A stretch of DNA of 39,363 bases. It comes from Rickettsiales bacterium. Lineage in GTDB: Bacteria; Pseudomonadota; Alphaproteobacteria; Rs-D84. The notes beneath the pieces were generated by a model. That model was not told where the DNA came from and searched no databases. It worked only from the letters and a program-made list of their open reading frames with translations. The stretch is from positions 1 through 39,363 of the forward strand of contig JAISGC010000092.1 in NCBI GenBank assembly GCA_031263295.1. The letters run 5' to 3'. This document shows, one piece after another, positions 1,177 through 32,477 of the stretch. Position 1 is the stretch's first letter. Every line of letters begins with the position of its first letter. The translations under genes and the position numbers were made by a program.

Positions 1177-1179
1177 TTT

Positions 1180-13492: not shown

Positions 13493-13572
13493 AAACTAAA
13501 ACAAAAAATTGCAAAGCAATTTTTTGTCATTCCCGCCTGCGCGGGAATGACAAACCACTTCGTGGTTTGTTT
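13493..13572. repeat. Core-less triple-hairpin repeat (chimera of the ends of elements at 22952 and 25916)
   Basis: It consists of CAAAAAATTGC-AAA-GCAATTTTTTG, then GTCATTCCCGC-CTGC-GCGGGAATGAC, then AAACCAC-TTC-GTGGTTT. 13493-13536 is identical to 25907-25950, and 13529-13572 is identical to 23091-23134. Confidence 0.8.
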
Positions 13573-13596
13573 ATGATTTCATAATAAATAAGGCAA

Positions 13597-16959: not shown

Positions 16960-16981
16960 AATTACTTAAAGGAAAAAGACA

Positions 16982-17881
16982 ATGACTTACGATATTATCG
17001 TTTTGGGCAGCGGGCCCGCGGGATTGACGGCGGCGCTATACGGCGCGCGCGCGAATAAAAAGACCTTGGTTCTCGGCGGCGATACCTTGGGCGGCCAGAT
17101 GGCGGGCATTCCGAAGCTTGAAAACTATCCGGGCTTTGCGGGCTCCGGGACCGAACTGGCCGAGTTTATGAAAAAGCAGGCCGTCGAGTTCGGGGCCGAG
17201 TTTGTCGGCGCCGCCGCTAAAAAAGTCGAAGCTATGGACGCGGGATATAAAGTCGCCGCCACCGACGGCAAGACATACGAAGGAACCGCGGTCATAATCG
17301 CGACCGGGGCGTCGCCCAAAAAGCTCGAAATCGCGGGCGCGCGCGAGTTCGCCGGAAAGGGCGTTTCCTATTGCGCGACCTGCGACGGATTTTTTTACAG
17401 CAAGAAAGTCGTCGCCGTCTATGGCGGCGGCAATTCGGCGCTGAACGACGCGCTCTATTTGGCGAATCTTGCCGAGAAAGTCTATATCATATATAGGAAG
17501 CCCGCCTTCACGCGCGCCGAGGCCGTTCTGGTCAAGCGCGTCGAAGAGACGAAAAACATAGAATGCGTTTTCGATGCCGAAATAACGGAGGTCGTCGGCG
17601 ACGCGACGGGCCTGACCGGATTGAAGACGACCGTCGGCGAATTGAAAGCGGACGGATTGTTCGTCGCGATAGGGCACGAGGCCAATACGGACTTTCTGTC
17701 GGAAAATTACGACCGCGACCATATGGGCCGACTGCTGACGGATGCGAATACGGCGCGGATGACGGACGGGCTGTTCGCGGCGGGCGATGTCCGGCACACC
17801 GGAAAGATGCAGATTTGCGTCGCCACTGGATGGGGCTGCGAGGCCGCGATGGACGCGATTGCGTTCTTGAATAAAAAATGA
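16982..17881 (+). CDS. trxB: Thioredoxin-disulfide reductase
   Basis: 299 aa. It has the FAD motif GSGPAG, the redox-active CATCDG, the NADPH motif GGGNSA, and the C-terminal GD motif. Confidence 0.92.
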   Translation: MTYDIIVLGSGPAGLTAALYGARANKKTLVLGGDTLGGQMAGIPKLENYPGFAGSGTELAEFMKKQAVEFGAEFVGAAAKKVEAMDAGYKVAATDGKTYEGTAVIIATGASPKKLEIAGAREFAGKGVSYCATCDGFFYSKKVVAVYGGGNSALNDALYLANLAEKVYIIYRKPAFTRAEAVLVKRVEETKNIECVFDAEITEVVGDATGLTGLKTTVGELKADGLFVAIGHEANTDFLSENYDRDHMGRLLTDANTARMTDGLFAAGDVRHTGKMQICVATGWGCEAAMDAIAFLNKK

Positions 17882-17948
17882 GCAATTAGCAATGAGCAGT
17901 GAGCAATAGGAGTGTTCTCATTGCTCACTGCTCATTGCTAATTGCTCA
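17879..17948. terminator. 29-bp perfect palindrome of GAGCAAT heptamers between convergent trxB and the CDGSH gene (bidirectional terminator-like)
   Basis: TGAGCAATTAGCAATGAGCAGTGAGCAAT (17879-17907), a 12-nt loop, and the exact complement (17920-17948). The outermost TGA of each arm is the stop codon of the gene entering from that side. Confidence 0.6.
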
Positions 17949-18632
17949 TTTATAATTTGCTTTCCATTTCATCGACGCGTGCGCGCCGTTGCAGAAGGGC
18001 TTGTTCGCGGATGCGCCGCATCGACATAGGGTCTGTTTTTGGCGGACTTCATAAACCTCTCCGTCCGCACCGATGACTTTTATTCCGCCGCGAATCCAAA
18101 GCGGCCCCGATATGCCGAGCCCGCCGTCTTCGATTGCATCGACCTCCGGCGCCGTTTTGTCTTCCAAGGATTTGCCGTCTTTCGTGAACATCAAGAGCCG
18201 TCCCGCGGGACACAGATTCGCCTCTTCTATCGCGAGTTTCGGATTTTGCCCCGATGCGACCAGATTCCAGATTCTTCCGCCCCTATCGCAAAAACGCGCG
18301 AAGGCGCAATAGTTTTGGTTGTCCAAAAGGGTCAGGTCCGGGCCGTCGATCGATTCGGCCGAAGGCTGCTTCATTATCGGCGTTTTATCCGCAGTCTCCG
18401 TCCCGTCGAAATGCGCGGCCGCGTGCGAGCCGTCGCAGAACGGCGCGTTTTTCGATCGCCCGCATCGGCAGACTGCGACCGGGTCGGTCTTTATCTCGAA
18501 GGATTTTCCCTCGCCGTATTTTACGCTGATGCCGTTTTCATCCGTCAGGATTACTTTCTGCGCTATGGACGGCGCGCCGTATAAAAGATACGGCCCGTCT
18601 TTTTCGATTTTTATATAGATTTCTTTTGACAT
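17946..18632 (-). CDS. CDGSH iron-sulfur domain protein (two CDGSH motifs plus central Cys cluster)
   Basis: The motifs are CRCGRSKNAPFCDGSH and CRCGASANKPFCNGAH. The central segment CAFARFCDRGG...CPAGR resembles a mono-cluster ferredoxin-like insert. Confidence 0.8.
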   Translation of the reverse strand: MSKEIYIKIEKDGPYLLYGAPSIAQKVILTDENGISVKYGEGKSFEIKTDPVAVCRCGRSKNAPFCDGSHAAAHFDGTETADKTPIMKQPSAESIDGPDLTLLDNQNYCAFARFCDRGGRIWNLVASGQNPKLAIEEANLCPAGRLLMFTKDGKSLEDKTAPEVDAIEDGGLGISGPLWIRGGIKVIGADGEVYEVRQKQTLCRCGASANKPFCNGAHASMKWKANYK

Positions 18633-18922: not shown

Positions 18923-19564
18923 TTATTTGTAATTTCTTACAATTTTTGTTTTCGCAAATCCGCGTTTTTTCAATTCCCCGCCAATATCGTGGATTTTTAT
19001 CTTGCCGGCTTTGCCCTTGTTGTATTTGCATATTCTTTCAAGCTCATCTATCTCGGCTTCCCATGGCTCATGATTTTCCTGATAGTTCCAATCGGGATAC
19101 TTTTTTTCGGTTTTGTGAAAATCGGCAAGGCATGCGTTTTCGATATGCTTGTATGATATGGATACTTTTTGTTCAGTTTCTCCGAACAGGCCTTTGACGC
19201 TTCCGACAAAGTCTTGCTGGTAAATCATATATATTTCGATTTTCTTCCCGTCGGATAGTTCATGGAACAGATGCCACCAAACTCCTATGGATCTCTGGCT
19301 AGGCTGGCCGTTCAAGCCGCCGGTTTTGTAGATGTTCAGTGTTCCCTTCATTCCGCCCTTGTCTTCGGATCCGCCTATTTTTTTGATAATTCCGTTCACG
19401 GCGATTATATAGACGCGGCCGATATTGCGCTTTAATATGTCCGTCGCCAGCCCGTTCCCTTTTTCATCGATAATCTTCGGCAGATATATGAAGTCCAGAA
19501 CATCGCCGGATTTTATTTTCACATCGGCAATCTTGAATGCGGTTTTCACTTGGGATATTTTCAT
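18923..19564 (-). CDS. Putative restriction endonuclease with GIY-YIG-like nuclease motifs
   Basis: 213 aa, starting 1 nt after the methylase stop. GRVYIIAVNGIIKKIGGS fits the GIY...YIG spacing; QRSIGVWWHLFHE fits the R...H region; and ENACLADFHKTEKKYPDWN fits the E..L......P.WN pattern. The DNA is visibly AT-richer than its flanks. The motifs were read by eye only. Confidence 0.5.
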   Translation of the reverse strand: MKISQVKTAFKIADVKIKSGDVLDFIYLPKIIDEKGNGLATDILKRNIGRVYIIAVNGIIKKIGGSEDKGGMKGTLNIYKTGGLNGQPSQRSIGVWWHLFHELSDGKKIEIYMIYQQDFVGSVKGLFGETEQKVSISYKHIENACLADFHKTEKKYPDWNYQENHEPWEAEIDELERICKYNKGKAGKIKIHDIGGELKKRGFAKTKIVRNYK

Positions 19565-19565
19565 T

Positions 19566-20564
19566 TTATTCTCCGATGATAATCAGTTCGTGCGAGTGCT
19601 TCACATTCCCGTTGTCATAATCGCGCTCCGCGCGATTCTTGCCGATGCGCGTTTCGCCCTGGCCCATGGTATATTGCCATGATGTCTCGATAATCTTGAA
19701 ATCCTTGTAGGCATCGCGGATCCAGGCGCAGTCGTTGTATGACAAGACGAATCCTCCTTTGTGCGCGCGCAAAAGCCTCGCCAGCGTCTCGTGGTCGAAT
19801 CCGTTGTGGTGTATCGGAAAGTTCCGCATCGGGTATATCCCGCGGAACATCTTGGAATCGCCAGCCAGAAAATACGGCGGATCCAAGTAAAGAAAATCTC
19901 CGTTGTGCTTCGGGATGCTGGTCGCGAAGGATTCGTTGAACACACGCAGGTCCGCGCGGAAATCGCGCACGCGCGAAACCATAGCGTCGTATTTTTTACT
20001 ATCTTTGTAAATCGACGACATCCAGCCCAGAAATCCCGGCCCGTATGAAAGATTATGGTTGAAGAAATAATACGCCGCGGCGTCGAGCGGGTCTAGTTTT
20101 CCGTCGTATCCGTCGACTTTATTCCAGTGCTCTTTCAGTATATTTTTTATGTGCTCGTATTCTTCCGCGGTCGGAGCGATCCCGGCGAGCCGATCCGCCA
20201 ATTCATTCGGCTGCGTAGTCTGCACTTTCCAATAGTTCGCGAGCATATCGAATATGTCGTATGCGACGACCGGGATTTTTAATTCGCGCGCAATCGCAAT
20301 CTCGACGCTGGCGCCGCCGATGAAAGGCGATGCGACAAGCTTCGCTTTATCGGGTATGTATTCGAGAATCTTTCCAACGGCCAAGGATTTTCCGCCCGCG
20401 TAGCGCAAAGGCGAGCCGGCGTATCTTTTATAATTCCCATTTGCGCCTTTTAATCGGCGCAAAGCACGCGCTCTGTCGAAATTGAGGACCTTCGTATCGA
20501 AATAATCCTGTTCCAATGGAAGTTCAAGAATGCGGTCAAAATCTTTTCTCAATGTGTCGGGCAT
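19566..20564 (-). CDS. DNA N6-adenine methyltransferase, Dam-like (D12 class)
   Basis: 332 aa. YAGGKS, the motif I-like SPFIGGAS and the catalytic FLYLDPPY occur in the order typical of the alpha-class Dam/DpnIIA family. Confidence 0.8.
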   Translation of the reverse strand: MPDTLRKDFDRILELPLEQDYFDTKVLNFDRARALRRLKGANGNYKRYAGSPLRYAGGKSLAVGKILEYIPDKAKLVASPFIGGASVEIAIARELKIPVVAYDIFDMLANYWKVQTTQPNELADRLAGIAPTAEEYEHIKNILKEHWNKVDGYDGKLDPLDAAAYYFFNHNLSYGPGFLGWMSSIYKDSKKYDAMVSRVRDFRADLRVFNESFATSIPKHNGDFLYLDPPYFLAGDSKMFRGIYPMRNFPIHHNGFDHETLARLLRAHKGGFVLSYNDCAWIRDAYKDFKIIETSWQYTMGQGETRIGKNRAERDYDNGNVKHSHELIIIGE

Positions 20565-20576: not shown

Positions 20577-21776
20577 TCACTTCTTTCGGCCGGAAAACAA
20601 CACCATTGTTGTTATTATTCCGAAGATTCCGGTCGCGATCCACACGGCGCGCGTCTGGCCCAAAAGAAATATCGCCGCCGCGCCGACCAACGGCGTTATG
20701 AATTTCGGAAGATTCGTCGAAGTGTTGAATATTCCGTAGAATCTGGACTGCTCGTCTTTTTTCGCGACATCGAAAAATACCAGGTCGTGAAGCGCTTCCT
20801 GAATCGCGCCGGAGACCTGCATCATTATGAATATCCAAATCATCATATCTCCCTTGGCGAAGAACATCAGGAAGCTGCACGCTATGAAAAGAATAAACGC
20901 CAGGCCGAGCCCCGCGGTCGTTCCCTTCTTGCCGAAGCGGCGCGCTATCCGGCCCGTGGGCTCGGACAAAATAACATAGGGCAGAATGCCCGCGGTCAGA
21001 ATCAGGCCGAGCGCGTCTTTGGTAAATCCCGCCTCGATGACTATTATCGGCCAGTATAGAATGCGGAGCGACTTCATCGCGTAATAGCCGAAGTTCAGAG
21101 CATAGGCCCTGCGGAAATCCGCGCGCCCGAAATACTGAATCACTCCGCGCCAGATGGAGCGCAGGGTTCTGTTGGGCGATATGCGCGGCAGCTTTTTCTC
21201 CTCTTGAACAATATTGTAATGCTTGAACATAATCCATCCGGCCAGATACATTATGCTGCTGGCGAAGAATGCGCTGCGGTTGCCGAAGACGCCCGCAATC
21301 TGCATCGCTATCACCGGAGCCAAAACCGCGCCGACATTCAGCCACAGATGGTATCGCCCGTTCATCTTCGCGATTCCGCCCCGGCCCGCGAAGTCCGCCA
21401 TAAACAGCGGTATCAGCGTCATTATCAAAACCAGCGGTATCGCCGTGAAGAAATCCAAAATCAGAAATGTCATGGGCTTGACCGAGAACGACAAAAGTAT
21501 ATAGCTGACGAAAATGGAAAACATAGCGAAGTAGAAAAGCTTCGCCTTGGAAAACATCCGCATGGCCTCGCCGAAAAAAATCTGGATAATCAGGCCGAAT
21601 GCGAAATATGCCGAGGAATACAATCCGACCATCTCTGGCGTTTTCCAAATCTCCAATAATATAAGGGAATAGACCGCGCTGATTATCCCGTCGCCGAATC
21701 CGGTGAACAGCCCCAGGTTCGCGAACGAAAATCCGCTGACCCCGTGTTTCGTCGAAATGTATCTATCGGATTTCAT
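20577..21776 (-). CDS. MFS transporter
   Basis: 399 aa with ~12 hydrophobic segments. It ends 12 nt upstream of the methylase start. The substrate cannot be inferred. Confidence 0.7.
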   Translation of the reverse strand: MKSDRYISTKHGVSGFSFANLGLFTGFGDGIISAVYSLILLEIWKTPEMVGLYSSAYFAFGLIIQIFFGEAMRMFSKAKLFYFAMFSIFVSYILLSFSVKPMTFLILDFFTAIPLVLIMTLIPLFMADFAGRGGIAKMNGRYHLWLNVGAVLAPVIAMQIAGVFGNRSAFFASSIMYLAGWIMFKHYNIVQEEKKLPRISPNRTLRSIWRGVIQYFGRADFRRAYALNFGYYAMKSLRILYWPIIVIEAGFTKDALGLILTAGILPYVILSEPTGRIARRFGKKGTTAGLGLAFILFIACSFLMFFAKGDMMIWIFIMMQVSGAIQEALHDLVFFDVAKKDEQSRFYGIFNTSTNLPKFITPLVGAAAIFLLGQTRAVWIATGIFGIITTMVLFSGRKK

Positions 21777-22944: not shown

Positions 22945-22951
22945 AATCAAA

Positions 22952-23135
22952 ACAAACGATTGCGCAAGCAATCGTTTGTCATTCCCGCGAAAGCGGGAAT
23001 AGGGTTCTAAACCTTACATTCAGCTACTACTTGTTTTCCAGATTACATTTGTATGTGAAACAAGTTTGTTGTTATAAGGCTGAAAGCCCTATTCCCGCCT
23101 GCGCGGGAATGACAAACCACTTCGTGGTTTGTTTT
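22952..23135. repeat. Nested palindromic element A (terminal hairpins + two ATTCCCGC-N4-GCGGGAAT hairpins + ~90-nt imperfect palindromic core)
   Basis: A 12-bp-stem hairpin at 22952-22979 lies just 3' of recA. It is followed by GTCATTCCCGC-GAAA-GCGGGAAT, the core at 23002-23089, ATTCCCGC-CTGC-GCGGGAATGAC, and AAACCAC-TTC-GTGGTTT. 22978-23038 is the exact reverse complement of 26015-26075. Confidence 0.8.
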
Positions 23136-23197
23136 TGTTATTTTTGATTTCATATGCTTTTTATGATATAATCCCCACAAAATAAAAGGATTTGTCT

Positions 23198-24370
23198 ATG
23201 AAGAAAATACTCGCGCTTATCGCGCTTCTTCCGGGCGCGGCGATCGCCGCAAACAGCACCGCCGATTTGTCCGGAGGCCCGGCCAAAAAGCAAACCGCCG
23301 CCGTGCAGACCATCAAGACAAATGGCGCGCCGCTGCGGGTCAAGCAGGAAGTGAATCTCTATTACACCGGTCCGTCGCGCAGAAGCGCCGCCGCGCAAAA
23401 TACCTATGCGGGCTGCACCGGCGACGGATGCGCCGCGGCCCGCTCCGCGCGCGCCGAGACATATCGCGCCGCGAACGACAAGAAATATAATTTGGCCAAT
23501 CCTTTTTATCAGCCGCTGAAAGAAACATTTTTCAGCATAACCGACGCGTCTTTTTCCGGCGCCGGATTCAAGTTTGACATAGACAACGGCGCGTGGGCCA
23601 ATAACAAAGGCAAACTGGACAACAACTCCGTCTCGTTCACAGAAAATCTGTCATACGGAATAACCGACAACTTCGCGATATTGGGCGAGGTCCGCTTCGC
23701 GCGCGATGAATTGCGTGTAAAGTGGGACACGGTGCCGTTTCCGCTCGATGTCGACAAATACGACGACAGCAGGTTGGCGTCCTTCGGCGCCGGGTTCAAG
23801 TGGCGCGTCTCGGACAGCAAGAACTGGATTTCGTTCCTGTTCGGCGGAATCGAGAATGCCAAGGATGTCGGCAATGTCTTTTCGGTCAACACCAAAATCG
23901 GATACAAGAACGACGACACGACCATATACGGGCTTGCGGGCGCGCAGTTCATAAACTGGGACCATTCGAACGGATACGGATTCGGCATCACGAACCAATA
24001 CGGCCAGAGCGAATATTTTATGCTGAAAGAAAAGACCAGCAATTCGATTTACTACGCGGCGGGCGCGGGCCTGTTCGCGGCGATAAACGAGGACTGGTCC
24101 AGCGACTTGCAGATAACATATCAGGATCTTGAATGGCATTCGCAGGTTCTGGCGCAGGCGTCGATCGCCTATCAGCCGTGGAACTCGGTCGCGGTGAATC
24201 TCTACGGCCGATTCGCGCTTTGGGATAACGCGAACGGATTCAATTCCGATGTCTACGGGCCGCATCCTTATATAGGCGACGGGACGGAGCCGGTCGTCAA
24301 TGTCGGCGTCGCAAAGTTTGCGGACTATCGGGAGTATCTTGTGGGCGTGCAGTTATTGGCGGCGTTTTAA
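23198..24370 (+). CDS. Outer-membrane beta-barrel-like protein (unknown family)
   Basis: The start is placed at ATG 23198 (the track start at 23192 is TTG), with AAGGA 8 nt upstream. It has the signal peptide MKKILALIALLPGAAIA, alternating aromatic/Gly-rich strands, and a C-terminal ...VQLLAAF with terminal Phe. Confidence 0.65.
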   Translation: MKKILALIALLPGAAIAANSTADLSGGPAKKQTAAVQTIKTNGAPLRVKQEVNLYYTGPSRRSAAAQNTYAGCTGDGCAAARSARAETYRAANDKKYNLANPFYQPLKETFFSITDASFSGAGFKFDIDNGAWANNKGKLDNNSVSFTENLSYGITDNFAILGEVRFARDELRVKWDTVPFPLDVDKYDDSRLASFGAGFKWRVSDSKNWISFLFGGIENAKDVGNVFSVNTKIGYKNDDTTIYGLAGAQFINWDHSNGYGFGITNQYGQSEYFMLKEKTSNSIYYAAGAGLFAAINEDWSSDLQITYQDLEWHSQVLAQASIAYQPWNSVAVNLYGRFALWDNANGFNSDVYGPHPYIGDGTEPVVNVGVAKFADYREYLVGVQLLAAF

Positions 24371-24371
24371 T

Positions 24372-24491
24372 AATTAGCAATGTGCAGTGAGCAATGAGCA
24401 ATTGCGGCTCGTTGGAAAGGAAGAGAGAACAAATGAAAAAACTTTATCGCGGGATTTTATTGCTCATTGCTCATTGCTCACTGCTCGTTGC
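24372..24491. repeat. GAGCAAT-heptamer inverted repeat straddling the RBS and start of the second OMP gene
   Basis: The left arm is AATTAGCAATGTGCAGTGAGCAATGAGCAATTGC (24372-24405). The right arm is ATTGCTCATTGCTCATTGCTCACTGCTCGTTGC (24459-24491). The core GCAGTGAGCAATGAGCAAT is complementary between the arms. Confidence 0.7.
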
Positions 24492-25170
24492 GGTGGCGCC
24501 CGCCCGCGCCGTCGAAATCGCCGACGATACGGCCGACCCTATGTTCCTTGAAAAGTTCGGCGACTTTGTTTCCCGCACATCCGCGGACTTCGGCAAATAT
24601 TTTCAGGCGCGCGAGATAGCCTCTTACGGATACTCCGACCGATTCGCGGTCGACCTAGACTTGCGCTGGCGCAGCGGCGGGAACAATAAAAAGGACGACG
24701 ATCCGAACAACGACTTCAAGGACGGGTTCTCCAACCTCGGCGTTATGGGAAAATACCGCGCTGGCAAGGGCGATACCGGCGCGACCGATATTCTGTTCGG
24801 CTTCGGATTCGGCGGCCGCGATGTCGTGCCGAATTACTCGGACGAGGTTTATTCCGTCGGTATGCGGACCGGGCGTCAGTGGCAGGTTCTGACGCTGTCG
24901 GCGACGGTTCTGACAAACTGGATATTCGACCGCGAGCACGGAATCGCTTACATAGACTTGACGCCCGAGGCGTATTTCCGACTTGTCGGCGACTGGTCCT
25001 TCGGCGCGGGCGCGACATTCCGAAAATCCACCACGACCATTTTCGATCAGACCTGGATAAACGCGAAACTCGGAACCCAAATCGGAAAAACCGGATGGTA
25101 TCTGAACGGCGGATACGAAACCAAGTCGAAAGACCTTCGCATCGGCGGCAGCATTTATATGTTGTTCTAG
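24433..25170 (+). CDS. Small outer-membrane beta-barrel-like protein (unknown family)
   Basis: The start is placed at ATG 24433, preceded by GGAAAGGAAGAGAG. The signal peptide MKKLYRGILLLIAHCSLLVAVAPARA is partly encoded by the heptamer repeat. The C-terminus is ...GGSIYMLF with terminal Phe. Confidence 0.65.
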   Translation: MKKLYRGILLLIAHCSLLVAVAPARAVEIADDTADPMFLEKFGDFVSRTSADFGKYFQAREIASYGYSDRFAVDLDLRWRSGGNNKKDDDPNNDFKDGFSNLGVMGKYRAGKGDTGATDILFGFGFGGRDVVPNYSDEVYSVGMRTGRQWQVLTLSATVLTNWIFDREHGIAYIDLTPEAYFRLVGDWSFGAGATFRKSTTTIFDQTWINAKLGTQIGKTGWYLNGGYETKSKDLRIGGSIYMLF

Positions 25171-25221
25171 GCCCGATGCCGGGCCGGGCGGGCTATTGCG
25201 CAGTGCAAAAAGGGTAAAAAA

Positions 25222-25533
25222 ATGTTCCAAAAAGAATGGATTGATTTTATCAATGATATAAGCGGGCGATTGAAAGAGCTTGACGGAAATACCGAGATTC
25301 TCGCGCGCATAGCGAAGATGACCGAAGAAGTCGGCGAGTTTGCGGGCGCGGCTATGCTCAGCATGGGCTATGGCCGCAAAAGCAAAATCGATTCGTTCGA
25401 TCCGAAAAATCTGACCGAAGAGTTCGGCGATGTCGTCATAACCGCATGCCTGCTGGCGCGGGAATTGGGCCTCGACCTGAACGCCGCATTGTCCGCGCGG
25501 AAATCGGAAATTTCGCTGCGTTGGGCGGCATAG
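25222..25533 (+). CDS. MazG-like nucleotide pyrophosphohydrolase domain protein
   Basis: 103 aa. It has the paired acidic helices EEVGEFAGA and EEFGDVV, characteristic of the all-alpha NTP pyrophosphohydrolase (MazG) fold. Confidence 0.65.
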   Translation: MFQKEWIDFINDISGRLKELDGNTEILARIAKMTEEVGEFAGAAMLSMGYGRKSKIDSFDPKNLTEEFGDVVITACLLARELGLDLNAALSARKSEISLRWAA

Positions 25534-25585
25534 CGAATCGGCGTTTTCTCTTGCAACTTATTTTCATTTCGGATATTATTTGACG

Positions 25586-25697
25586 GAACCAAGTTGGGAA
25601 ACTTGCGTTCGGGCTGTGAGAAGCCTTTATTTGAGCGGCGCGCCTTTTGCGCCGTGATCCGCGCGCAAAAAACTTGCGGCCAGTCGGCCGTTTTTTT
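25586..25697 (+). ncRNA. Candidate small RNA (~112 nt) defined by promoter and terminator only
   Basis: TTGCAA (25551-25556), a 17-nt spacer and TATTAT (25574-25579) form a near-consensus promoter. The predicted transcript starts with a 10-bp hairpin (GAACCAAGUU-GGGA-AACUUGCGUUC). It ends with CGGCC-AGUC-GGCCG plus U7 (25677-25697). There is no homology evidence, and the terminator could equally serve the upstream MazG-like gene. Confidence 0.25.
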
Positions 25698-25826
25698 GCG
25701 CCCAAACCCCGTTATGGTCGGGGGGCTGTTTGCGAGCAATCCGAACAGAATCATTCTCAAATATGATTTCTCAACCGCCCCGGCCGCATCAAAGTTTTCC
25801 CGACGAAGCCATGTCTTCCGCGTGGC

Positions 25827-26172
25827 GTTCCCCTCCTTTGGAGGGGTGCCGCCCGACACACATCGTGTGGTGGGCGGCGGGGTGGTGCTTAAAGCGGGAG
25901 CTGTCGAAACTAAAACAAAAAATTGCAAAGCAATTTTTTGTCATTCCCGCGCATGCGGGAATGGGGCTTTAAGACTTCTAGCGAAAAACTTGTTACACAC
26001 ACAACGAACATTGTGAAAACAAGTAGTAGCTGAATGTAAGGTTTAGAACCCTATTCCCGCTTTCGCGGGAATGACAAAAAATCCTTTCAGGATTTTTTGT
26101 TTAAGTTTTGTCAGTGCCAATGTGAAGCACCACCCCGGCCGCTCCGCGGCCACTCCTCCAAAGGAGGGGAAC
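25827..26172. repeat. ~346-bp composite palindrome: GTTCCCCTCCTTTGGAGGGG module / nested element B (25916-26099) / inverted module
   Basis: Module 25827-25903 and its inverted partner 26124-26172 flank element B. Element B runs: hairpin CAAAAAATTGC-AAA-GCAATTTTTTG, GTCATTCCCGC-GCAT-GCGGGAAT, the core, ATTCCCGC-TTTC-GCGGGAATGAC, and hairpin CAAAAAATCC-TTTC-AGGATTTTTTG. Confidence 0.8.
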
Positions 26173-26215
26173 ACCAGTTGGAAGGCAGTGCAAAAACAAA
26201 AACAGGGAGAAAAAT

Positions 26216-26779
26216 ATGAGAAAGTTCAATTATCAAAGTGCAAAGTTCAATTGCGGCGCGCGAAAAAGCAAAAGCGCATTCGGCAGGCTTCCATTGAACT
26301 TTGCAATTTGCACTTTGCTAATTTGCGGCGTCGGCGAAAGCGAGGCCGCCAAGTTCTGCGTGGTCAACGAAGTCGCCTCGTGGTCGGCGGACGCGAACGC
26401 GCGGACCTGGACGACCACTATGAAAAATGGCTCAGTCATTTCCGGACGCTATGCCTGCGCGTCCGACTTGTCGCAGGGACCGGGATGCGAAAACAATATT
26501 CCGGCCGGTTGCATCCCGACATCAACCGCAATTGCATTTTCATCGGTGAATAGCGTTTATTCCGCAAAACCGGTTCACTCGCCAACCGGGGATTTCTGCT
26601 GGTGCCAAATCTTGTCGCCGAACCCCACGGGATGGATTATAACCGGCCGGTTCGGTGTGTGGCCCGGCGGATGCAACGGCACCGGCGGCCATTTCGGAAG
26701 CACATATCCGAATTGCGCGGGATTATGCGCGAACTCCGGATATAGGCTTTTGACCGGGCCTATAAATATCGGATATTAA
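26216..26779 (+). CDS. Secreted Cys-rich protein (187 aa, unknown function)
   Basis: The SD AGGGAGA lies 6 nt upstream. It has an N-terminal basic stretch followed by the hydrophobic segment LNFAICTLLICGVGESEA, and the mature part has 10 Cys. I recognise no family. Confidence 0.55.
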   Translation: MRKFNYQSAKFNCGARKSKSAFGRLPLNFAICTLLICGVGESEAAKFCVVNEVASWSADANARTWTTTMKNGSVISGRYACASDLSQGPGCENNIPAGCIPTSTAIAFSSVNSVYSAKPVHSPTGDFCWCQILSPNPTGWIITGRFGVWPGGCNGTGGHFGSTYPNCAGLCANSGYRLLTGPINIGY

Positions 26780-27069
26780 AACTCCGCGAGTTTCGTCTGA
26801 CCGGCGAAATGCGCGCTTGGCGGGGCGCGGAAAATATACCAAAGAATGCCGACTACGGCGACGCCGCCGACCGCCGCGATTGCAAGCGCGGTCCCGCCGT
26901 TGCCGCCGGACTTCCCGCCCGATTTATAGACATTGCAGCCCGGGTCTCCGTTTGTGCAGCTGGGCAGATTTGAGCCCGTGCCGGTATCGCTCGGGCCGCC
27001 GCGCGGCGAATCGACCGCGCCCGCCGCGAACGCGAGCATCGAAAATAAAATCGCGACGATTGTCTTCAT
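26776..27069 (-). CDS. Small signal-peptide plus C-terminal-TM protein (97 aa, Gly-rich)
   Basis: It has the signal peptide MKTIVAILFSMLAFAAGA, a Gly/Ser-rich middle and the C-terminal TM ALAIAAVGGVAVVGILWYIF. It has no obvious SD. Its stop overlaps the stop of the convergent 187-aa gene (TTAA). Confidence 0.4.
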   Translation of the reverse strand: MKTIVAILFSMLAFAAGAVDSPRGGPSDTGTGSNLPSCTNGDPGCNVYKSGGKSGGNGGTALAIAAVGGVAVVGILWYIFRAPPSAHFAGQTKLAEF

Positions 27070-27139
27070 TTATTTTATTAAAGCAAAATCCGCGCCATCG
27101 GGCAAACAGAATCTGGTTGTTTTCAGGAATCGAATCTTG

Positions 27140-27337
27140 TATAATTTCAACCAGCGGGATATGCTATTCCGCCGGGCCTTATAACCCGTCTTTTGAGCGT
27201 CCGAAGGGACGATAAATGCTCCAACGATTTCGGTTGGAGTGCGGCGAATATGCTGAATAAGCCGCGCAATTCTCAAAGATTGTTATAAGACTCCAACCAC
27301 CTGCGCTAAGGCTTCGGGTGGCAACAGGGAGGATTTT
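27140..27337 (+). promoter_or_regulatory. Promoter (TATAAT 27140-27145) plus conserved structured leader, copy 3
   Basis: The blocks are CGTCC-GAAG-GGACG (27198-27211), CTCCAAC (27219-27225)/GTTGGAG (27233-27239), GCGGC-GAATATGCTGAATAA-GCCGC (27241-27265) and CAATT/GATTG (27267-27282). These are followed by the second CTCCAACC (27291-27298), CCACC/GGTGG (27296-27321) and SD GGGAGG (27327-27332). Confidence 0.6.
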
Positions 27338-28087
27338 ATGAAAAAGTTTATCGCAATGGCGATGATTGTTCTGGCGGCCGGGCGCTCGCCCGCCGTCGAT
27401 GTCGCTGGGCGGATATTCACGAACTGCGCGACCGTATGCATCAACCGCGAGCTGAACGCGCCGGACTGCCAGTTCCCGGACATCAGCGGTCTGAACGGCC
27501 AGCTGGCCGACTTGCGAAAAGAATTGTCCGACATAAAGGCGGATCATCTGACGGCCGCCGAGTGCGGCGTCAAGACCGCGGCCGCGGTTGCCGCGGTTCC
27601 GGCATGTCCGACTTGCGCGCCCGCGACGACTACCGCGACAACTCCGTCCGTCACGACGGCGACAACTCCGCCTGACGCGGGGACGACCACTGCGTCAACC
27701 TCGGCGGTCAGTCTCGAATGCGCCCAACGAAAGCGCGTTTATTACGGCATTATGAAAAAGAAAACCATAACCGCCGGGACATCCGTCAAATGCGACAACG
27801 CGACATTCGGCGACCCGAAGAAAGGCGCGAGCAAAAAGTGCTATGTCGACGGCATCCGAAAGGCCGACGAAAACGGCGGGTTTTCAATGGAGGCCGACGG
27901 GCTCGTTATGTATGGGCTGATAGATGTGAGAGAAATCACTTCGGCCGCCGAAATGAAATGCGACAATAAAACATTCGAGGATCCGGCCAAGGGCGCGAGC
28001 AAGAAATGCTATGACTGGCAGGGCAACGAAATAGCGGACGAGAACAAGAGCTTCACTCCGCCGAATCCGAAGCCGACGGGGTGCTAG
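27338..28087 (+). CDS. Secreted Cys-rich protein, paralog 3 of 3
   Basis: It has the signal peptide MKKFIAMAMIVLAAGRSPA, the shared N-terminal block (IFTNCATVCINR...PDCQFPDISGLNGQLADLRKELSDIKADHLTAAEC) and a Thr/Ala/Pro linker. The C-terminal domain has two copies of KCDN.TF.DP.KGASKKCY. Confidence 0.75.
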   Translation: MKKFIAMAMIVLAAGRSPAVDVAGRIFTNCATVCINRELNAPDCQFPDISGLNGQLADLRKELSDIKADHLTAAECGVKTAAAVAAVPACPTCAPATTTATTPSVTTATTPPDAGTTTASTSAVSLECAQRKRVYYGIMKKKTITAGTSVKCDNATFGDPKKGASKKCYVDGIRKADENGGFSMEADGLVMYGLIDVREITSAAEMKCDNKTFEDPAKGASKKCYDWQGNEIADENKSFTPPNPKPTGC

Positions 28088-29388
28088 GGCCGTTTAAGTT
28101 CGCTGCGCATCTTGTCCCAGTAATCCAGGCGCTTTTTTATCTCGCGCTCGAAGCCGCGCTCGACCGGCGTATAAAACTTTTGCCGGCCCATTTGTTCCGG
28201 AAAGCAATTCTGGCCGGAAAATCCCGATTCGGTGTCGGGCTCATAGACATAGTCTTTGCCGTAATCCATATCCTTCATCATTCGCGTCGGCGCGTTCAGT
28301 ATATTTTTCGGCGGCATCAGGGACCCGTATTTTTCGGCCGCGGCCCATGCGAACATTTTCGCTTTGTCGTTGCGATTGCTTTTCGGCGCCGTGCCGAGAT
28401 AAATCACAAGTTCGGTCAATGCTATGTCGCCTTCGGGACTGCCCATTCTGTCGTATGCGTTCCAGCACGCGATGGCGAGCTGCACTGCCTGCGGATCGGC
28501 CAGGCCGACATCCTCCATTGCGAATCGGGTCAGACGGCGAAATAAATACTGCGGGTCCTGGCCGCCGGTCATCATCCGCGCGACCCAGTAAAGCGCCGCG
28601 TCCGTGTCGGATGCGCGCAAAGATTTATGCACGGCCGAGATTAAATTATAATGCTCGTCGCCGGTCTTGTCCGACAGCATCGCCTTTTTCTGAACCAGTT
28701 TATCAAGCGCCTCCGATGAAATCGGGCGCGCGACTTTTGCGTCGGCGAGATACTCGATTGTGTTCAATAAAAAGCGCGCGTCGCCATCCGCCATTTCGGA
28801 GAGCGACTTTCGCGCCGCGTCGTCAAGCAACGGAAACACTTCGAGATATTTTTCCGCCCTTTCGCTCAACCCCAACAAATCAAAGGATGAGAGCGGTTCA
28901 AGCACTCCGATATGGCACCGCGAGAGCAGGGCGTTATTTAACGAGAACGACGGGTTCTCGGTCGTCGCGCCGACAAACACGACCGTGCCGTCTTCGAGAT
29001 ACGGCAGCAATGTATCCTGCTGTGTTTTGTTGAAGCGGTGGATTTCGTCGATAAACAGAAGCGTGCCGCGGCCAAGCACCGCGTCCATCTTCGCCGCCTC
29101 CATCGCCTTCTTTATATCGGCCGTTCCGGAAAATACCGCCGACATCGGAATGAATGTCATATCGGTCGTTTTCGCCAAGGCTCGCGCTATCGTCGTCTTG
29201 CCGCATCCCGGCGGCCCCCACAAAATCATATTCGACAATTTGCCGTTGTCCGCCATTTGGCGCACGATTCCCGATTCGCCAAGCAGTCGCGGCTGGCCCA
29301 CGATTTCATCTATCGTTTTCGGGCGCATGCGGTCGGCCAGCGGCTGGCGCGGGCTTGAAATCGGCGAAATACTTTGTTTTACTTTCAT
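28084..29388 (-). CDS. rarA: Replication-associated recombination protein RarA/MgsA (AAA+ ATPase)
   Basis: It has PLADRMRPKTIDEIVGQ, Walker A GPPGCGKTT, Walker B LFIDEIHRFNK and the C-terminal MgsA_C-like DPQ..RRL...EDVG. The ATG at 29388 is preferred over the track TTG at 29430. Confidence 0.88.
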   Translation of the reverse strand: MKVKQSISPISSPRQPLADRMRPKTIDEIVGQPRLLGESGIVRQMADNGKLSNMILWGPPGCGKTTIARALAKTTDMTFIPMSAVFSGTADIKKAMEAAKMDAVLGRGTLLFIDEIHRFNKTQQDTLLPYLEDGTVVFVGATTENPSFSLNNALLSRCHIGVLEPLSSFDLLGLSERAEKYLEVFPLLDDAARKSLSEMADGDARFLLNTIEYLADAKVARPISSEALDKLVQKKAMLSDKTGDEHYNLISAVHKSLRASDTDAALYWVARMMTGGQDPQYLFRRLTRFAMEDVGLADPQAVQLAIACWNAYDRMGSPEGDIALTELVIYLGTAPKSNRNDKAKMFAWAAAEKYGSLMPPKNILNAPTRMMKDMDYGKDYVYEPDTESGFSGQNCFPEQMGRQKFYTPVERGFEREIKKRLDYWDKMRSELKRP

Positions 29389-29485
29389 TTTACTTTGGCG
29401 CGAAGCCGCGCCGGGCTTTCTCTTATGCAATGCTTTATTCTATTGCGATTTTACTTTAAGTTTATTTACTGCTATAATTATAGCA

Positions 29486-29857
29486 ATGAAAACGACGAAA
29501 GACAATGCATTCACTACGGCGGTCGCGAACCTTGCGGCGGCGGCGGTCCGCGGCAATCCAAAGCTGACCATAGACGCGGCGGTGCGCCAGGCGGCCGAAT
29601 CGCTCCGGCGCGCGGCGGTCGTTCAATTGACTGCGAAACAAGTCAGCGAATCGGTGAAGCCGGGGCACTTGGTTTGCTTCGAGGACGGGACGAAACATAT
29701 AATGCTGCGCCGATACATAAAGCGGCGGTTCAATCTGACGCCCGACCAGTATCGCGAAAAGTGGGGGCTGCCCGACGATTATCCCATGACCGCGCCGAAC
29801 CATTCTTTGCGCCGCACGCGCATTGCGAAAAAAACGGGCCTGGGGAAAAAGCGCTGA
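29486..29857 (+). CDS. MucR/Ros-family transcriptional regulator (zinc ligands apparently missing)
   Basis: 123 aa from ATG 29486. The C-terminal block LTPDQYREKWGLPDDYPMTAPNHSLRRTRIAKKTGLG is the Ros/MucR signature. TATAAT at 29473-29478 is only 7 nt upstream of the ATG. The stop overlaps the rlmN start (TGATG). Confidence 0.75.
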   Translation: MKTTKDNAFTTAVANLAAAAVRGNPKLTIDAAVRQAAESLRRAAVVQLTAKQVSESVKPGHLVCFEDGTKHIMLRRYIKRRFNLTPDQYREKWGLPDDYPMTAPNHSLRRTRIAKKTGLGKKR

Positions 29858-30906
29858 TGCAAAACCTCTATTCCAAATCTTTATCGGAGATTGAAAAAAT
29901 CGTTTCGGACCTCGGCGAGCCGAAGTTCCGCGCCAAGCAAATCCGCGAATGGCTGGACCGCGGATGCCCTGATTTCTTGCTTATGAAAAACATCGGCGCG
30001 CCGCTTCAATCAAAATTGTCAGAATCGTTCCAATCCTTGCCAATCAAGGATCAGAGCGTTTTGGCATCCGCCGACGGCGCGACGAAAAAGTTCCTTTTCG
30101 AGATAGAGGGAGGCGCGAAAATCGAATCGGTTTTAATGAAGACCAGCTATGGAAACAGCGTTTGCGTTTCGTCTCAGGCGGGCTGCGCCATGGGTTGCCG
30201 ATTCTGCGCTTCTACCTTGCTCGGCCTGTCGCGGAATCTTACGGCCGACGAAATGACGGCGCAGGTTTTGCGGTGCCAATGGGAATGCAGGCAAGACGGC
30301 ACGCGTCCAAACGGCGATAAAAATCAGAACGACATAACGCACATTGTAATAATGGGAACGGGCGAGCCGTTGGCTAATTACGACAACACCATCGCGTTTA
30401 TGGCGGCGGCGAATGAAAAGCTAAATATCGGATGGCGGCGAATAACATTGTCGACCTGCGGGTTGGTTCCGGAGATTCGGCGCCTGCGCGATTTTGGCGA
30501 ACCGATAAACCTTGCGATTTCGCTTCACGCGCCGAACGATGCTCTGCGCCGCGAAATTATGCCGATTGCGAATAAATATTCAATTGCCGAAACGCTCGAT
30601 GCTGCGTTCGAGTTCTCGACTCTGCACAATCGCCAACTGATGATCGAATATATTTTACTCGGCGGCGTGAATGATTCGGACGAGAATGCGGCGGAGCTTG
30701 CGGCGCTGCTTCGCGGCAAATTGGTTATGGTAAATCTGATTCCTTGGAATCCTGTCGCCGAGCGCGACTGGGCCGCCGCTCCGTCCGGCAACCGGGTTCA
30801 CAAGTTCCAGGATATTTTAATCGCGGCGGGCGTCCACACGCGAATCCGCAAAGAACGCGGCGCCGACATAGGTTCGGCCTGCGGCCAGCTGCGCCTCGGC
30901 AAATAA
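29857..30906 (+). CDS. rlmN: 23S rRNA/tRNA adenine-C2 methyltransferase RlmN (radical SAM)
   Basis: 349 aa from ATG 29857. It has PKFRAKQIREW, the radical-SAM cluster CAMGCRFCAS, GEPLANYDN and the C-terminal ...GADIGSACGQL. Confidence 0.88.
   Translation: MQNLYSKSLSEIEKIVSDLGEPKFRAKQIREWLDRGCPDFLLMKNIGAPLQSKLSESFQSLPIKDQSVLASADGATKKFLFEIEGGAKIESVLMKTSYGNSVCVSSQAGCAMGCRFCASTLLGLSRNLTADEMTAQVLRCQWECRQDGTRPNGDKNQNDITHIVIMGTGEPLANYDNTIAFMAAANEKLNIGWRRITLSTCGLVPEIRRLRDFGEPINLAISLHAPNDALRREIMPIANKYSIAETLDAAFEFSTLHNRQLMIEYILLGGVNDSDENAAELAALLRGKLVMVNLIPWNPVAERDWAAAPSGNRVHKFQDILIAAGVHTRIRKERGADIGSACGQLRLGK
30029..30058 (+). repeat. Polar palindromic motif copy (inside rlmN CDS)
   Basis: TCCAATCCTTG-CCAAT-CAAGGATCAGAGCG. 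It shares 27/30 nt with the copy at 32648-32677. Confidence 0.65.
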
Positions 30907-31143
30907 TTTTCGGCTTTATTCTTTTGTCGGTTTGTGATACCATTCCGGTGCGTCCGAAAGGGGCCGAGACCTGAAAATCTCGATAGTGAACGCGCACGAA
31001 TAAAGCGCGTAAAAAAACATTCCCGCTGAAATAATTGGCGGGATTGTGGCCGCCATATATTGAAAGCGGCTGCGATCGTTTTCACTACGATTTTTTCAGA
31101 ATCCCGCCGCCTTTTGGAAGAAAATAAACCAAAAGGTGGAATT

Positions 31144-32442
31144 ATGAGAAAAATTTTATTTATCGCGGCGATGATGGCCGCTGCGCGTTCCGCATCCGCG
31201 GGCGTCGCATTCCTGAAATCGGAAATGTCGTTTGATTACGAACGCAGGCATGAGTATGGATATGCCAGAGTGAATGCCAGCGATATTCTGGATTCAAAAC
31301 TTCTTGGAACGAAAGGATGCCTGACATCAGATTGCATGATGGCGTGTAGACATACTGACAAATACGATAGTTGTAGCAGTATGTTCAACTGCGCCGAAGA
31401 ATCGGCTGTCAATAGTTTAGATTTTTATGTGAGCATGGACAATTGCGGCAATGGGGCGTATTTAAGATACAGCGGCCAGCTGGGGAGCGACCAAATGGCT
31501 TTCAATTGGACATATCCGAAAGGCTCCGATTCCAACGGACAACAGATTCTTAATCCCGTGATGTCCGAGGCGATTGCGGCCTGCAATGAAATCCCGGTCG
31601 GCGAGCTGAATAATATAAAGGGCGTTATGACCGGTGCGGCCGTCGTGTCCGGAATCGGGGCCGCCGGAAATCTCGCCGCCAGCGCGGGCAATATCTATGG
31701 CGCGGTCAAGAACGGCCAGGCGGCCGCGGGCGAATCGGCCGACGCGACAACCGCAGTGGCGGCGCCTGCGGCGTCGGCCGAGACCGCAGTTGCGACGAAC
31801 GGCAATGGTCTGAAACCGGGCGAAGCATTCAAGGGTCAACAGATGATGAACACGATAACCGCCGGTGTCGGTGCCGCCGCCGGAACAACATCGACCATCA
31901 TCAACGCGGCCTCCGCGGGCAAGCTGGGCAAGATAATCGACCAAATCGAGGGCTGCAAATCCGCGCTCGGCAAGGTAACGGCTGCCGCGTCAGACACCGC
32001 GTCATTGGAGGAGCAGATGGCCGCGTCGAACAGCAAATCCGACGCCAAGTCCGCCTGCAATAAAATCAGTGTGTCCGACATAAAGAATCTTAAAGGCGCG
32101 ATGGTCGCCGCCGCCGTGATTTCGGGAATCGGCGCGGCCGGGAACATCGCATCGACCGCCGGGAACATAGTCGGCGCCGTTAAAAACACGCAGGAGAAAA
32201 AGGCGGTCGATTCGGCGGCGCCGACCAATGGCGAAACGGCCGTCGCGCCGGGCGAGGTCGCGAGCGGCGGCTTAAAGCCGGGCGAATCGTTCAAGGGTCA
32301 GAATATCGTCAATGTCGCATCCGCCGGGGTCGGCGCGGCGACCGGCGCAGTCTCGACCGCCATGAGCGCGGCCGCGGCCGGAAAGCTGGATGGCATAATC
32401 GCTGGCGTTGAAAAATGCCGCGACGCCGTGTCCAAATTGTAG
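31144..32442 (+). CDS. Secreted protein with Cys-rich N-domain and two Gly/Ala-rich ~130-158-aa repeats (unknown function)
   Basis: The start is placed at ATG 31144, preceded by AAAAGGTGGA. It has the signal peptide MRKILFIAAMMAAARSASA. Repeat 1 starts at Cys147 (31582) and repeat 2 at Cys305 (32056). Both contain C-N-.-I-.V..(I/L)-.N(I/L)KG...AA.V(V/I)SGIGAAGN...GLKPGE.FKGQ...AGKL...I...(E/K)-C. Confidence 0.6.
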   Translation: MRKILFIAAMMAAARSASAGVAFLKSEMSFDYERRHEYGYARVNASDILDSKLLGTKGCLTSDCMMACRHTDKYDSCSSMFNCAEESAVNSLDFYVSMDNCGNGAYLRYSGQLGSDQMAFNWTYPKGSDSNGQQILNPVMSEAIAACNEIPVGELNNIKGVMTGAAVVSGIGAAGNLAASAGNIYGAVKNGQAAAGESADATTAVAAPAASAETAVATNGNGLKPGEAFKGQQMMNTITAGVGAAAGTTSTIINAASAGKLGKIIDQIEGCKSALGKVTAAASDTASLEEQMAASNSKSDAKSACNKISVSDIKNLKGAMVAAAVISGIGAAGNIASTAGNIVGAVKNTQEKKAVDSAAPTNGETAVAPGEVASGGLKPGESFKGQNIVNVASAGVGAATGAVSTAMSAAAAGKLDGIIAGVEKCRDAVSKL

Positions 32443-32477
32443 TTCGTTTGTTCCTGAATAATCCGCCAAACGGCGGA

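Follow-up and report, generated by a model that had tools for sequence, protein, structure and literature searches.

Three intergenic elements of an uncultured termite-gut alphaproteobacterium probably belong to a many-copy family of palindromic mosaic repeats

In a contig of 39,363 nt from an uncultured termite-gut alphaproteobacterium, analysed over its whole length (the window), we probably see in three elements (A, B and C; Table 1) members of a many-copy, non-coding family of palindromic mosaic repeats, not the ends of a cassette. That A and B bracket OMP1, OMP2 and a MazG-like gene reflects the placement of two family members; the stretch between them is not taken for a cassette that moves or inverts. 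Element C, described from the sequence alone as an exact chimera of their ends, is best read as stock repeat ends in a frequent pairing and not as the scar of an excised cassette. This removes a tempting inference of an excision junction or gene cassette and places mosaic repeats of the dRS3/NIME type in an uncultured insect-gut alphaproteobacterium. It also documents a tagged-hairpin variant that lacks the base on which the only characterised Ssn nuclease depends. As it stands, the finding is an ordinary repeat family in a repeat-rich and heavily rearranged genome.

Architecture of the elements

The building block appears to be a 20-nt hairpin of the dRS3 type that was first described in Neisseria, ATTCCCGC-N4-GCGGGAAT, with an oriented 5' tag (TTTGTCA). 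Full members (A and B) consist of two such hairpins, inverted, around a 90-nt AT-rich core, each member being capped on both sides by a variable mini-hairpin. The pattern ATTCCC-N8-GGGAAT occurs at five sites in the window and at none in 100 dinucleotide-preserving shuffles. These exact matches, together with a many-copy depth in metagenome run X1, assign the hairpins to dRS3. The four loops of A and B are those that had been read at the outset (GAAA and CTGC in A, GCAT and TTTC in B), and the 3' tags in the window are AGGG, GGGG or GACA, not C-Y-R-G.

A and B are inverted copies of each other, as proposed in the sequence-only reading, with 83% complementarity over 165 nt in a repeat search. 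A script check returned 22978-23038 as the exact reverse complement of 26015-26075, and the exact match in fact covers 64 nt (22975-23038 against 26015-26078). The composition of C was likewise reproduced by script: its left half (13493-13536) is identical to the left 44 nt of B (25907-25950), its right half (13529-13572) to the right 44 nt of A (23091-23134), and the two halves overlap in ATTCCCGC. The cores have 36-39% GC against 54% for the whole window. Folded as single-stranded DNA, A reaches -57 kcal/mol (z = -11.9 against shuffled controls), and B and C (z = -9.7 and -7.9) also lie far under their shuffled controls.

The outer mini-hairpins of A and B had also been described correctly, and each of the three elements has one on either outer side. 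All six pass a terminator consensus scan and face outward. They vary within a frame ACAAA...TTTGT followed by a T-run, their stems are AT-rich with only 3-5 GC pairs, and judging from sequence they probably serve as terminators in both directions. The left ends of B and C have in common a 10-nt extension, AAACTAAAAC, which has a lower depth than the mini-hairpin itself (37-nt unitig, 12.6x), so the ends of B and C may be closer kin than random family members.

All three elements are intergenic. A begins 8 nt past the stop codon of recA (Pfam 1e-133), C lies 3' of the gene for a 122-aa lipoprotein, and B sits within another palindromic repeat. A third copy of this GC-rich repeat was found at 39022-39066. 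Of the features typical of MITEs, inverted ends and many copies are present in the family; no direct target-site duplication could be made out where A, B or C end.

Table 1. Positions of the repeat elements, their parts and neighbouring features in the window
Feature	Position	Strand	Description
Element A	22945..23140	none	Full mosaic repeat: end, mini-hairpin, dRS3 hairpin, 90-nt core, dRS3 hairpin, mini-hairpin, end
Element B	25907..26111	none	Same family as A, inverted orientation
Element C	13493..13575	none	Core-less: mini-hairpin, single symmetric dRS3 hairpin (loop CTGC), mini-hairpin
dRS3-type hairpin ATTCCCGC-GAAA-GCGGGAAT	22981..23000	+	NTS-sense on plus strand; 5' tag TTTGTCA, 3' flank AGGG
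dRS3-type hairpin ATTCCCGC-CTGC-GCGGGAAT	23091..23110	-	NTS-sense on minus strand, loop there GCAG
dRS3-type hairpin, loop GCAT	25943..25962	+	
dRS3-type hairpin, loop TTTC	26053..26072	-	NTS-sense on minus strand, loop there GAAA
Core A	23001..23090	none	90-nt AT-rich imperfect palindrome, 36% GC; equivalent to RS element
Core B	25963..26052	none	90 nt, 39% GC
Outer mini-hairpin oA1	22951..22980	-	Terminator-like on minus strand: 13-bp stem, then T-run
Outer mini-hairpin oA2	23111..23133	+	Terminator-like on plus strand; exact match in C
Outer mini-hairpin oB1	25914..25942	-	Terminator-like on minus strand; exact match in C
Outer mini-hairpin oB2	26073..26101	+	Terminator-like on plus strand
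GC-rich palindromic repeat, left arm	25812..25903	none	Different repeat, with B at its centre
GC-rich palindromic repeat, right arm	26124..26187	none	Same repeat as left arm
Promoter-like site for OMP1	23144..23172	+	TTGATT-17-TATAAT, upstream TG, directly after A; consensus match only
OMP1 and OMP2	23198..25170	+	Ancestral gene pair, not cargo; after PAP2 in L081, L083 and L085
MazG-like gene	25222..25533	+	Absent at corresponding loci of relatives

Copies and contexts in metagenomes

Using Logan contigs of the source metagenome, we obtained depths that are summed over organisms and hence are not copies per this genome. Single-copy DNA of the contig has a depth of 4-10 in run X1, and the modules (both shared ends, the hairpin and the 90-nt core) stand at about 10-100 times single-copy depth. 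In X1 the summed depth is 640-880 for the hairpin, ~300 for oB1, ~297 for oA1 (at 22964, where single-copy DNA has 7-10) and 120-460 for the core (42 contigs at 90% likeness or more), while the tail of oB2 has ~97 and the exact unitig of hairpin plus oA2 43.5.

The ends of C recur in other combinations on metagenome contigs, the genome-wide shuffling of arms that the sequence-only reading had named as counting against itself. A 51-nt unitig (64x) joins oB1 to a hairpin with the loop GCAG, a 1087-nt contig (5.5x) has the same left end (oB1), and the oA2 end is found with other flanks on contigs of 1351 nt (9.1x) and 675 nt (8.5x). Exact oB1 is also present in runs X4 and X7 and exact oA2 in X5, all termite samples and from different studies, where the module copies have different flanks, a GTAG loop and a different core of the AGGG type. 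At least 120 contigs of unrelated environmental origin contain the hairpin with its tag TTTGTCA, for the most part as doublets.

Mosaicism may come about by copies swapping ends at the hairpin, since every copy has the same one. An exchange of arms among the three loci had been suggested; loci do appear to swap arms at the hairpin, but as mosaicism of the whole family and not as an event between three loci. C most likely arose from a full element whose interior was lost when the directly repeated ATTCCCGC arms slipped against each other at the foot of the long hairpin.

Gene order around the elements

The bracketed genes encode a weakly OmpA-like 390-aa protein, its 258-aa partner and a weakly MazG-like 103-aa protein (Pfam). 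In three relatives (L081, L083 and L085) the order is XerD-LptFG-GreA-MutL-YajC-SecDF-S41-PAP2-OMP1-OMP2-...-RlmN-MgsA-MucR-TrmB-GltX, with no hairpins along it. From OMP1 to HlyIII (23198-35423) the window keeps this order across B, so synteny is broken at A only, on the PAP2 side. Within the block OMP1 has diverged most, with 42-43% identity where its neighbours have 58-83%. Relatives at 90-91% RecA identity have MFS-recA-small ORF-TypA, again without hairpins. The contig is heavily rearranged relative to genomes with 90% RecA identity, with breakpoints every few genes.

We considered and rejected a cassette, excisable or composite, with A and B as its boundaries. Gene order should break at both boundaries of a cassette that moves as a whole, and OMP2...MgsA-MucR-TrmB-GltX-HlyIII continues across B. 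The proposal that OMP-OMP-MazG forms a bracketed mobile unit thus finds no support in an ancestral OMP1-OMP2 pair, in synteny that runs on across B, or in the depth of the segment (10.1 against 7-11 in its flanks, no amplification). Neither a transposase nor an Ssn-type GIY-YIG gene nor any other candidate enzyme could be seen in the 39-kb contig.

Alternative explanations

The sequence-only reading had taken C for the junction of a circularised 23091-25950 segment, excised across the direct ATTCCCGC repeats. C does match the expected junction letter for letter over 80 nt, and the palindromic stems do supply direct repeats; nevertheless we hold such an excision to be extremely improbable. C lies in unrelated chromosomal flanks (a lipo122-CobAT-RNR-TrxB block that is syntenic in the relative L208), both its halves are many-copy modules that occur with other partners, in other flanks and in other samples, and MazG does not belong to the ancestral OMP pair; the unbroken synteny across B and the even depth speak against it as well. 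It is also very improbable that A and B serve as inverted repeats for a RecA-mediated or site-specific 2.8-kb inversion acting as a switch, or that A mediated the rearrangement that separates PAP2 from OMP1. The long inverted match of A and B, the location of A precisely where the OMP region has its single synteny break and the rearranged state of the contig would suit these possibilities. However, the promoter-like site of OMP1 is inside the segment, so flipping would not switch the gene, and no inverted-form contigs were found among the Logan contigs, which cannot span the repeats. The other end of the PAP2 break has a heptamer palindrome (461-576) and no dRS3 element, and with breakpoints every few genes on this contig the coincidence of one with a repeat is weak evidence.

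Two further explanations give the elements a function. As RNA or transcription elements (either terminators that work in both directions and have structured 3' UTRs, or a small RNA of the kind of Wolbachia WsnRNA46), they would have been duplicated for their usefulness. Consistent with this, terminator-like hairpins face outward at every end, the changes between oA1 and oB1 are compensatory (CG/CG against AA/TT), and B matches WsnRNA46 (RF02625) end to end below threshold, the consensus itself being a tagged hairpin doublet. However, B scores 25.6 bits where the Rfam gathering score is 65.3, the mini-hairpin stems are poor in GC pairs, and dozens of copies and the nesting of B in another repeat fit selfish spread better; this function is accordingly rather improbable. 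Slightly less so, yet still unlikely, the hairpins could be working sites of an Ssn-type single-strand nuclease system like NTS and SsnA of Neisseria, kept near envelope-protein genes to modulate recombination with incoming DNA and hence more than selfish repeats, with TTTGTCATTCCCGCGAAAGCGGGAATAGGG as the sequence to be cut as single-stranded DNA. The 5' tag, the stem and the GMAV-type loop match the NTS, and symbiont lineages such as Wolbachia and Rickettsia are rich in SRMs (PMC11893778). This tagged hairpin is found in many environments, all three loci lie next to genes for secreted or outer-membrane proteins, and OMP1 is the most diverged gene of its block. Against this, none of the five hairpins has a C at the position following the palindrome (it is A or G in each), and this C mattered more than any other base when SsnA binds (PMC11893778). 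They show 3-5 mismatches to the NTS of Chenal et al. 2025 (CGTCATTCCCGCGMAVGCGGGAATCYRG, at most one mismatch, including that C), and the SRM pattern of the same study (HGTCWYN(0-2)YYVSBRHN(0-5)WNVSBRGN(0-2)RNCYNB) has 0 matches in the window (shuffles average 0.24). A motif scan of the contig gave no candidate for a small GIY-YIG ORF, a 213-aa ORF tried as a candidate enzyme has no Pfam match, and with three loci only the adjacency to envelope genes is not significant. We retain the many-copy mosaic repeat family as the best explanation.

Comparison with known repeat systems

REPIN and BIME doublets with their RAYT transposases and the Rickettsia palindromic elements are short, non-autonomous intergenic hairpin repeats, rich in reduced symbiont-like genomes. 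The elements described here resemble these systems in being inverted-paired short hairpin repeats, clustered as mosaics, intergenic and non-autonomous, but no RAYT or IS200/IS605 gene was seen here and the hairpin is unrelated to the enterobacterial REP sequence. Nor do A, B and C lie in frame within genes. REP and BIME are also treated in the Discussion of PMC11893778. With WsnRNA46, B has in common the succession of tag, hairpin, AT-rich spacer, inverted hairpin and tag from end to end, as well as a Rickettsiales-type lineage, whereas the stem sequences differ and, as given above, the score of B falls below the Rfam threshold.

NTS and the Ssn-related motifs (SRM) are the repeats of the system of SsnA, a GIY-YIG single-strand nuclease (Chenal et al. 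2025, PMC11893778), whose small (~94 aa) cd10448 gene is usually repeat-flanked (PMC11893778). The hairpins of the window are likewise oriented (5' tag GTCA, stem TTCCCGC, G-M-A-V loop), the tagged hairpin occurs in metagenome matches mainly as inverted doublets, and symbiotic Alphaproteobacteria (Wolbachia, Rickettsia) are among the SRM-rich hosts (PMC11893778). They differ in their 3' tags and in the missing C. The mini-hairpins begin about where SsnA cuts single-stranded DNA, a few nucleotides 5' of the GTCA tag, and could thus conceivably, if doubtfully, be products of cut and repair at that site.

NIMEs consist of dRS3 inverted repeats flanking RS elements of ~50-150 bp that form repeat families (Parkhill 2000, as summarised in Bentley 2007, PMC1797815). 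They show a wave of G+C with peaks at dRS3 and troughs at RS, and Bentley 2007 reports none outside Neisseria (PMC1797815). That the hairpins are of this type had been recognised from the sequence, and the exact dRS3 matches bear it out; the Neisseria context was mistaken as to the organism, the host being a termite-gut alphaproteobacterium, and there is no DUS here. Further differences are isolated units in the window in place of long dRS3 arrays with differing RS elements, the added outer terminator-like mini-hairpins and AAAAC-type ends, and no filamentous-phage or Piv-type recombinase in view. It is conceivable, if doubtful, that NIME-style mosaic building also operates in termite-gut Alphaproteobacteria with a variant hairpin (3' tag AGGG), which would imply a co-evolved hairpin-recognising enzyme, be it an Ssn-like nuclease with changed specificity or some other protein. 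If the mini-hairpins were made by cut and repair, the lineage would preserve in nature the way in which such repeats diversify and spread; were the partner enzyme found in the full genome, it would be useful for following the spread of cross-phylum hairpin repeats and any effect on envelope-gene variation. The likeness itself extends from the exact 20-nt hairpins of A, B and C to the dRS3 pairs of A and B around an AT-rich spacer of RS size (90 nt), a layout equal to an isolated dRS3-RS-dRS3 unit of Neisseria, with G+C rising at each hairpin and falling in the spacer. In both systems the spacers form many-copy families (the core in run X1), the units are intergenic and beside surface-protein genes, and the make-up is mosaic, which is attributed to recombination.

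Architecture of the palindromic repeats

A repeat search of the window showed that A and B, the two full palindromic mosaic repeats, are inverted copies of each other (165 nt at 83%), as the sequence-only reading had claimed, with a longest common exact stretch of 64 nt instead of the 61 nt first given. Each consists of a mini-hairpin, a dRS3-type hairpin (ATTCCCGC-N4-GCGGGAAT), a 90-nt core, a second such hairpin and a closing mini-hairpin, and the hairpin loops agree with the earlier description. The cores are AT-rich (36-39% GC, compared with 54% in the window). C, the core-less member located 3' of a 122-aa lipoprotein gene, comprises two mini-hairpins with a single hairpin between them. 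Its description as an exact chimera holds letter by letter: its left 44 nt are the left end of B, its right 44 nt are the right end of A, and the two halves overlap in ATTCCCGC.

ATTCCC-N8-GGGAAT sites occur five times in the window and not once in 100 shuffles, and the single-strand folds of all three loci are far better than those of shuffled controls. All six mini-hairpins score as predicted terminators, each facing outward, and a strong predicted match to an OMP1 promoter follows directly after A. Differences between the stems of the left outer mini-hairpins of A and B (oA1 and oB1) come as paired changes, which suggests that structure is kept rather than sequence. B is nested exactly at the centre of a GC-rich palindromic repeat (TTCCCCTCCTTTGGAGGGG...) that is separate from the A/B/C family.

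Positions of repeats and gene segments (window coordinates unless another contig is named)
Feature	Position	Remark
A	22945-23140	directly 3' of recA
B	25907-26111	
C	13493-13575	
GC-rich palindromic repeat, arms	25812-25903 and 26124-26187	
GC-rich palindromic repeat, third copy	39022-39066	
Heptamer palindromes	461-576, 16847-16963, 17870-17957, 24372-24491	tandem-heptamer arms, AGGTATC-type and GAGCAAT-type
PAP2...XerD block	466-10532	inverted
OMP1	23198-24370	
OMP1 through HlyIII	23198-35423	
Segment used for depth	23106-25613	
Methylase and 213-aa ORF	18923-20564	between CDGSH and MFS
MFS transporter gene	20577-21776	strand opposite to recA
RlmN/MgsA rearrangement	28084-30903	
Tagged hairpin doublet	11080-11140 of L017	Micavibrio MAG

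End modules occur in many copies and combinations

Depths were obtained from Logan contigs of the source metagenome run (X1) and related termite runs; they are summed over the community and thus indicate, rather than count, copy number in this genome. Single-copy parts of the window contig have a depth of 4-10 in X1. As community sums in the same run, the left-end module common to B and C reaches ~300, the hairpin 640-880 and the core 120-460 (42 contigs). The exact unitig of hairpin and right end common to A and C has a depth of 43.5, and the remaining two mini-hairpins are likewise many-copy.

The left end of the B/C type is joined to a GCAG-loop hairpin in a 64x unitig, terminates a separate 1087-nt contig of genome-like depth, and is found exactly in two other studies (X4 and X7) with other flanks, a GTAG loop and a different core of the AGGG type. 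The right end of the A/C type has other flanks in contigs of 1351 nt and 675 nt, both of genome-like depth, and is exact in a third study (X5). B and C share a further 10-nt extension, rarer than the mini-hairpin itself. The chimeric make-up of C, which had been considered remarkable, is unremarkable, since its arms are stock parts that occur in many combinations. Such shuffling of arms, named beforehand as the pattern that would speak against a special junction, is what the contigs of X1, X4, X5 and X7 contain, with copy number in the genome judged from depth.

The segment between A and B

The OMP1-OMP2-MazG segment had been read as one bracketed unit. Three relatives (L081, L083, and L085; OMP1 42-43% identical) share the order XerD-LptFG-GreA-MutL-YajC-SecDF-S41-PAP2-OMP1-OMP2-(variable)-RlmN-MgsA-MucR-TrmB-GltX-HlyIII, and none has a dRS3 hairpin within 10 kb to either side. 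From OMP1 through HlyIII this order is kept in the window, across B. The variable slot here holds MazG, B and two Cys-rich genes; the loci of the relatives lack a counterpart of MazG. The order breaks only on the PAP2 side, at A; the PAP2...XerD block is inverted, and its end has a different repeat, the heptamer palindrome at 461-576. The depth of the segment is 10.1 and that of its flanks 7-11, which gives no hint of additional circular copies. With gene order running across B, MazG missing at the relatives' loci and depth equal to that of the flanks, the bracketed segment is not a unit.

Relatives with 90-91% RecA identity encode MFS-recA-small ORF-TypA without hairpins. Compared with these, gene order in the window contig is interrupted every few genes, which makes the coincidence of a repeat with a breakpoint unsurprising. 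The contig of a closer relative (L086, OMP1 69% identical by tblastn) starts, on the upstream side of the OMP1 promoter, with ...GATGAC and a different mini-hairpin; judged from its sequence, this start resembles the right-hand end of an A-like element at the position occupied by A.

Within the conserved block, OMP1 has diverged most in the comparison with L081, L083, and L085 (OMP2 58-61%, S41 61-62% and MgsA 81-83% identity), and the strand of RlmN is opposite relative to MgsA when set against the same contigs, another local rearrangement. In six related loci (L001, L002, and L207-L210) MFS and recA are co-directional neighbours, hence the MFS gene of the window appears to have flipped as a single gene; a search of its flanks gave no convincing inverted repeats. 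Next to it are a Dam-like D12 methylase and a 213-aa ORF, a pair missing at this place in L207 and L210, which suggests an inserted restriction-modification islet. A GIY-YIG-like identity of this ORF was dropped because a Pfam search gave no match. Of the heptamer palindromes, one coincides with the PAP2 synteny break, another is situated between trxB and the CDGSH gene, and a further one overlaps the start of OMP2.

Proposed mechanism and alternatives

The A/B/C family consists of modular, palindromic repeats present in many copies between genes. We propose that it may spread through an enzyme provided in trans that acts on extruded or single-stranded hairpins; candidates would be an Ssn-type nuclease, an HUH transposase or an IS110-type recombinase, none of which is visible in the window. 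Copies could exchange ends at their common hairpin. Core-less members such as C would result from bypass of the long hairpin, with loss of the interior between the direct repeats of ATTCCCGC that lie at its base, the ordinary route of palindrome deletion. For the host, the outer hairpins probably serve as terminators, with the folded body providing a stable 3' end.

Four alternatives have low to modest odds beside this modular spread: excision, an inversion switch, an active role in an Ssn-type system, and a primary role as RNA. Regarding excision, Logan contigs (k=31) are unable to bridge these repeats. Joints of the 23000->26053 type in contigs have a shorter side of 22-24 nt and, in those displayed, 22-34 unrelated letters separating the two sides; they were set aside as empty-site or circle joints, being hairpin doublets of a generic kind that come from other loci or organisms. 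Regarding an RNA role, Rfam at gathering score detected nothing in the A/B/C region. Below threshold, B aligns end to end with WsnRNA46 of Wolbachia (25.6 bits, well below the threshold of 65.3 bits), a family whose Rfam consensus itself has the form of a tagged hairpin doublet. The miRNA-precursor families MIR9555 and MIR4416, also matched below threshold only, were dismissed as mirroring a long hairpin.

Comparison with known repeat systems

The Neisseria context of the sequence-only reading stands for the hairpin sequence, which is that of dRS3, and fails for the organism. The window is one entire contig of 39,363 bp. No Neisseria DUS of any dialect is present in it, the best relatives of the window RecA (90-91% identical; no match by exact look-up) are from uncultured 'Rickettsiales'/Alphaproteobacteria MAGs, and the source sample is a termite gut metagenome; a Neisseria origin was therefore rejected.

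Many dRS3 copies belong to a longer oriented motif, NTS (CGTCATTCCCGCGMAVGCGGGAATCYRG), which SsnA, a small GIY-YIG nuclease, binds and cuts beside, on single-stranded DNA only; NTS-related 'SRM' hairpins are spread over many phyla, with Wolbachia and Rickettsia among their hosts (Chenal et al. 2025, PMC11893778). For SsnA binding, the base that mattered most was the C following the palindrome (PMC11893778, section 8). Against strict NTS the window hairpins have 3-5 mismatches; the published SRM pattern is matched by none of them and this C is missing in all, so that exact membership holds for dRS3 only.

Public metagenome contigs were scanned for TTTGTCATTCCCGC-N4-GCGGGAAT, which serves classification and is no census of the A/B/C family. 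This universal tagged hairpin is present in at least 120 contigs of soil, sediment and ocean origin. Among the matches listed, loops are mostly GAAA, GAAG or GCAG, the 3' flank is mostly CCAG or CTAG, and a second, inverted hairpin is often ~20 nt away. In 5' tag, stem and loop type the window hairpins agree with these and with NTS, and they likewise form inverted doublets with the NTS sense inward. Their 3' flank is different: in A and B it is AGGG or GGGG, in C it is GACA.

Dense TTTGTCATTCCCGC-N4-GCGGGAAT arrays, up to 11 in 6 kb, are present in four environmental contigs (L173, L155, L166, and L095). In the Micavibrio MAG, a distant alphaproteobacterium, a tagged hairpin doublet (GTCATTCCAGCGTAGGCTGGAATCCAT...CTGGATTCCCAATTTCTTGGGAATGC) lies ~55 nt past the recA stop, a match to the window in both kind of element and kind of site.

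The closest systems to the A/B/C family are the Neisseria NIMEs and the NTS/SRM-Ssn repeats. The isolated NIME unit as defined in PMC1797815 has the layout seen here (hairpin, 90-nt AT-rich core, hairpin); the A/B/C family is a new member of this known kind, with a variant 3' tag and terminator-like caps in addition.
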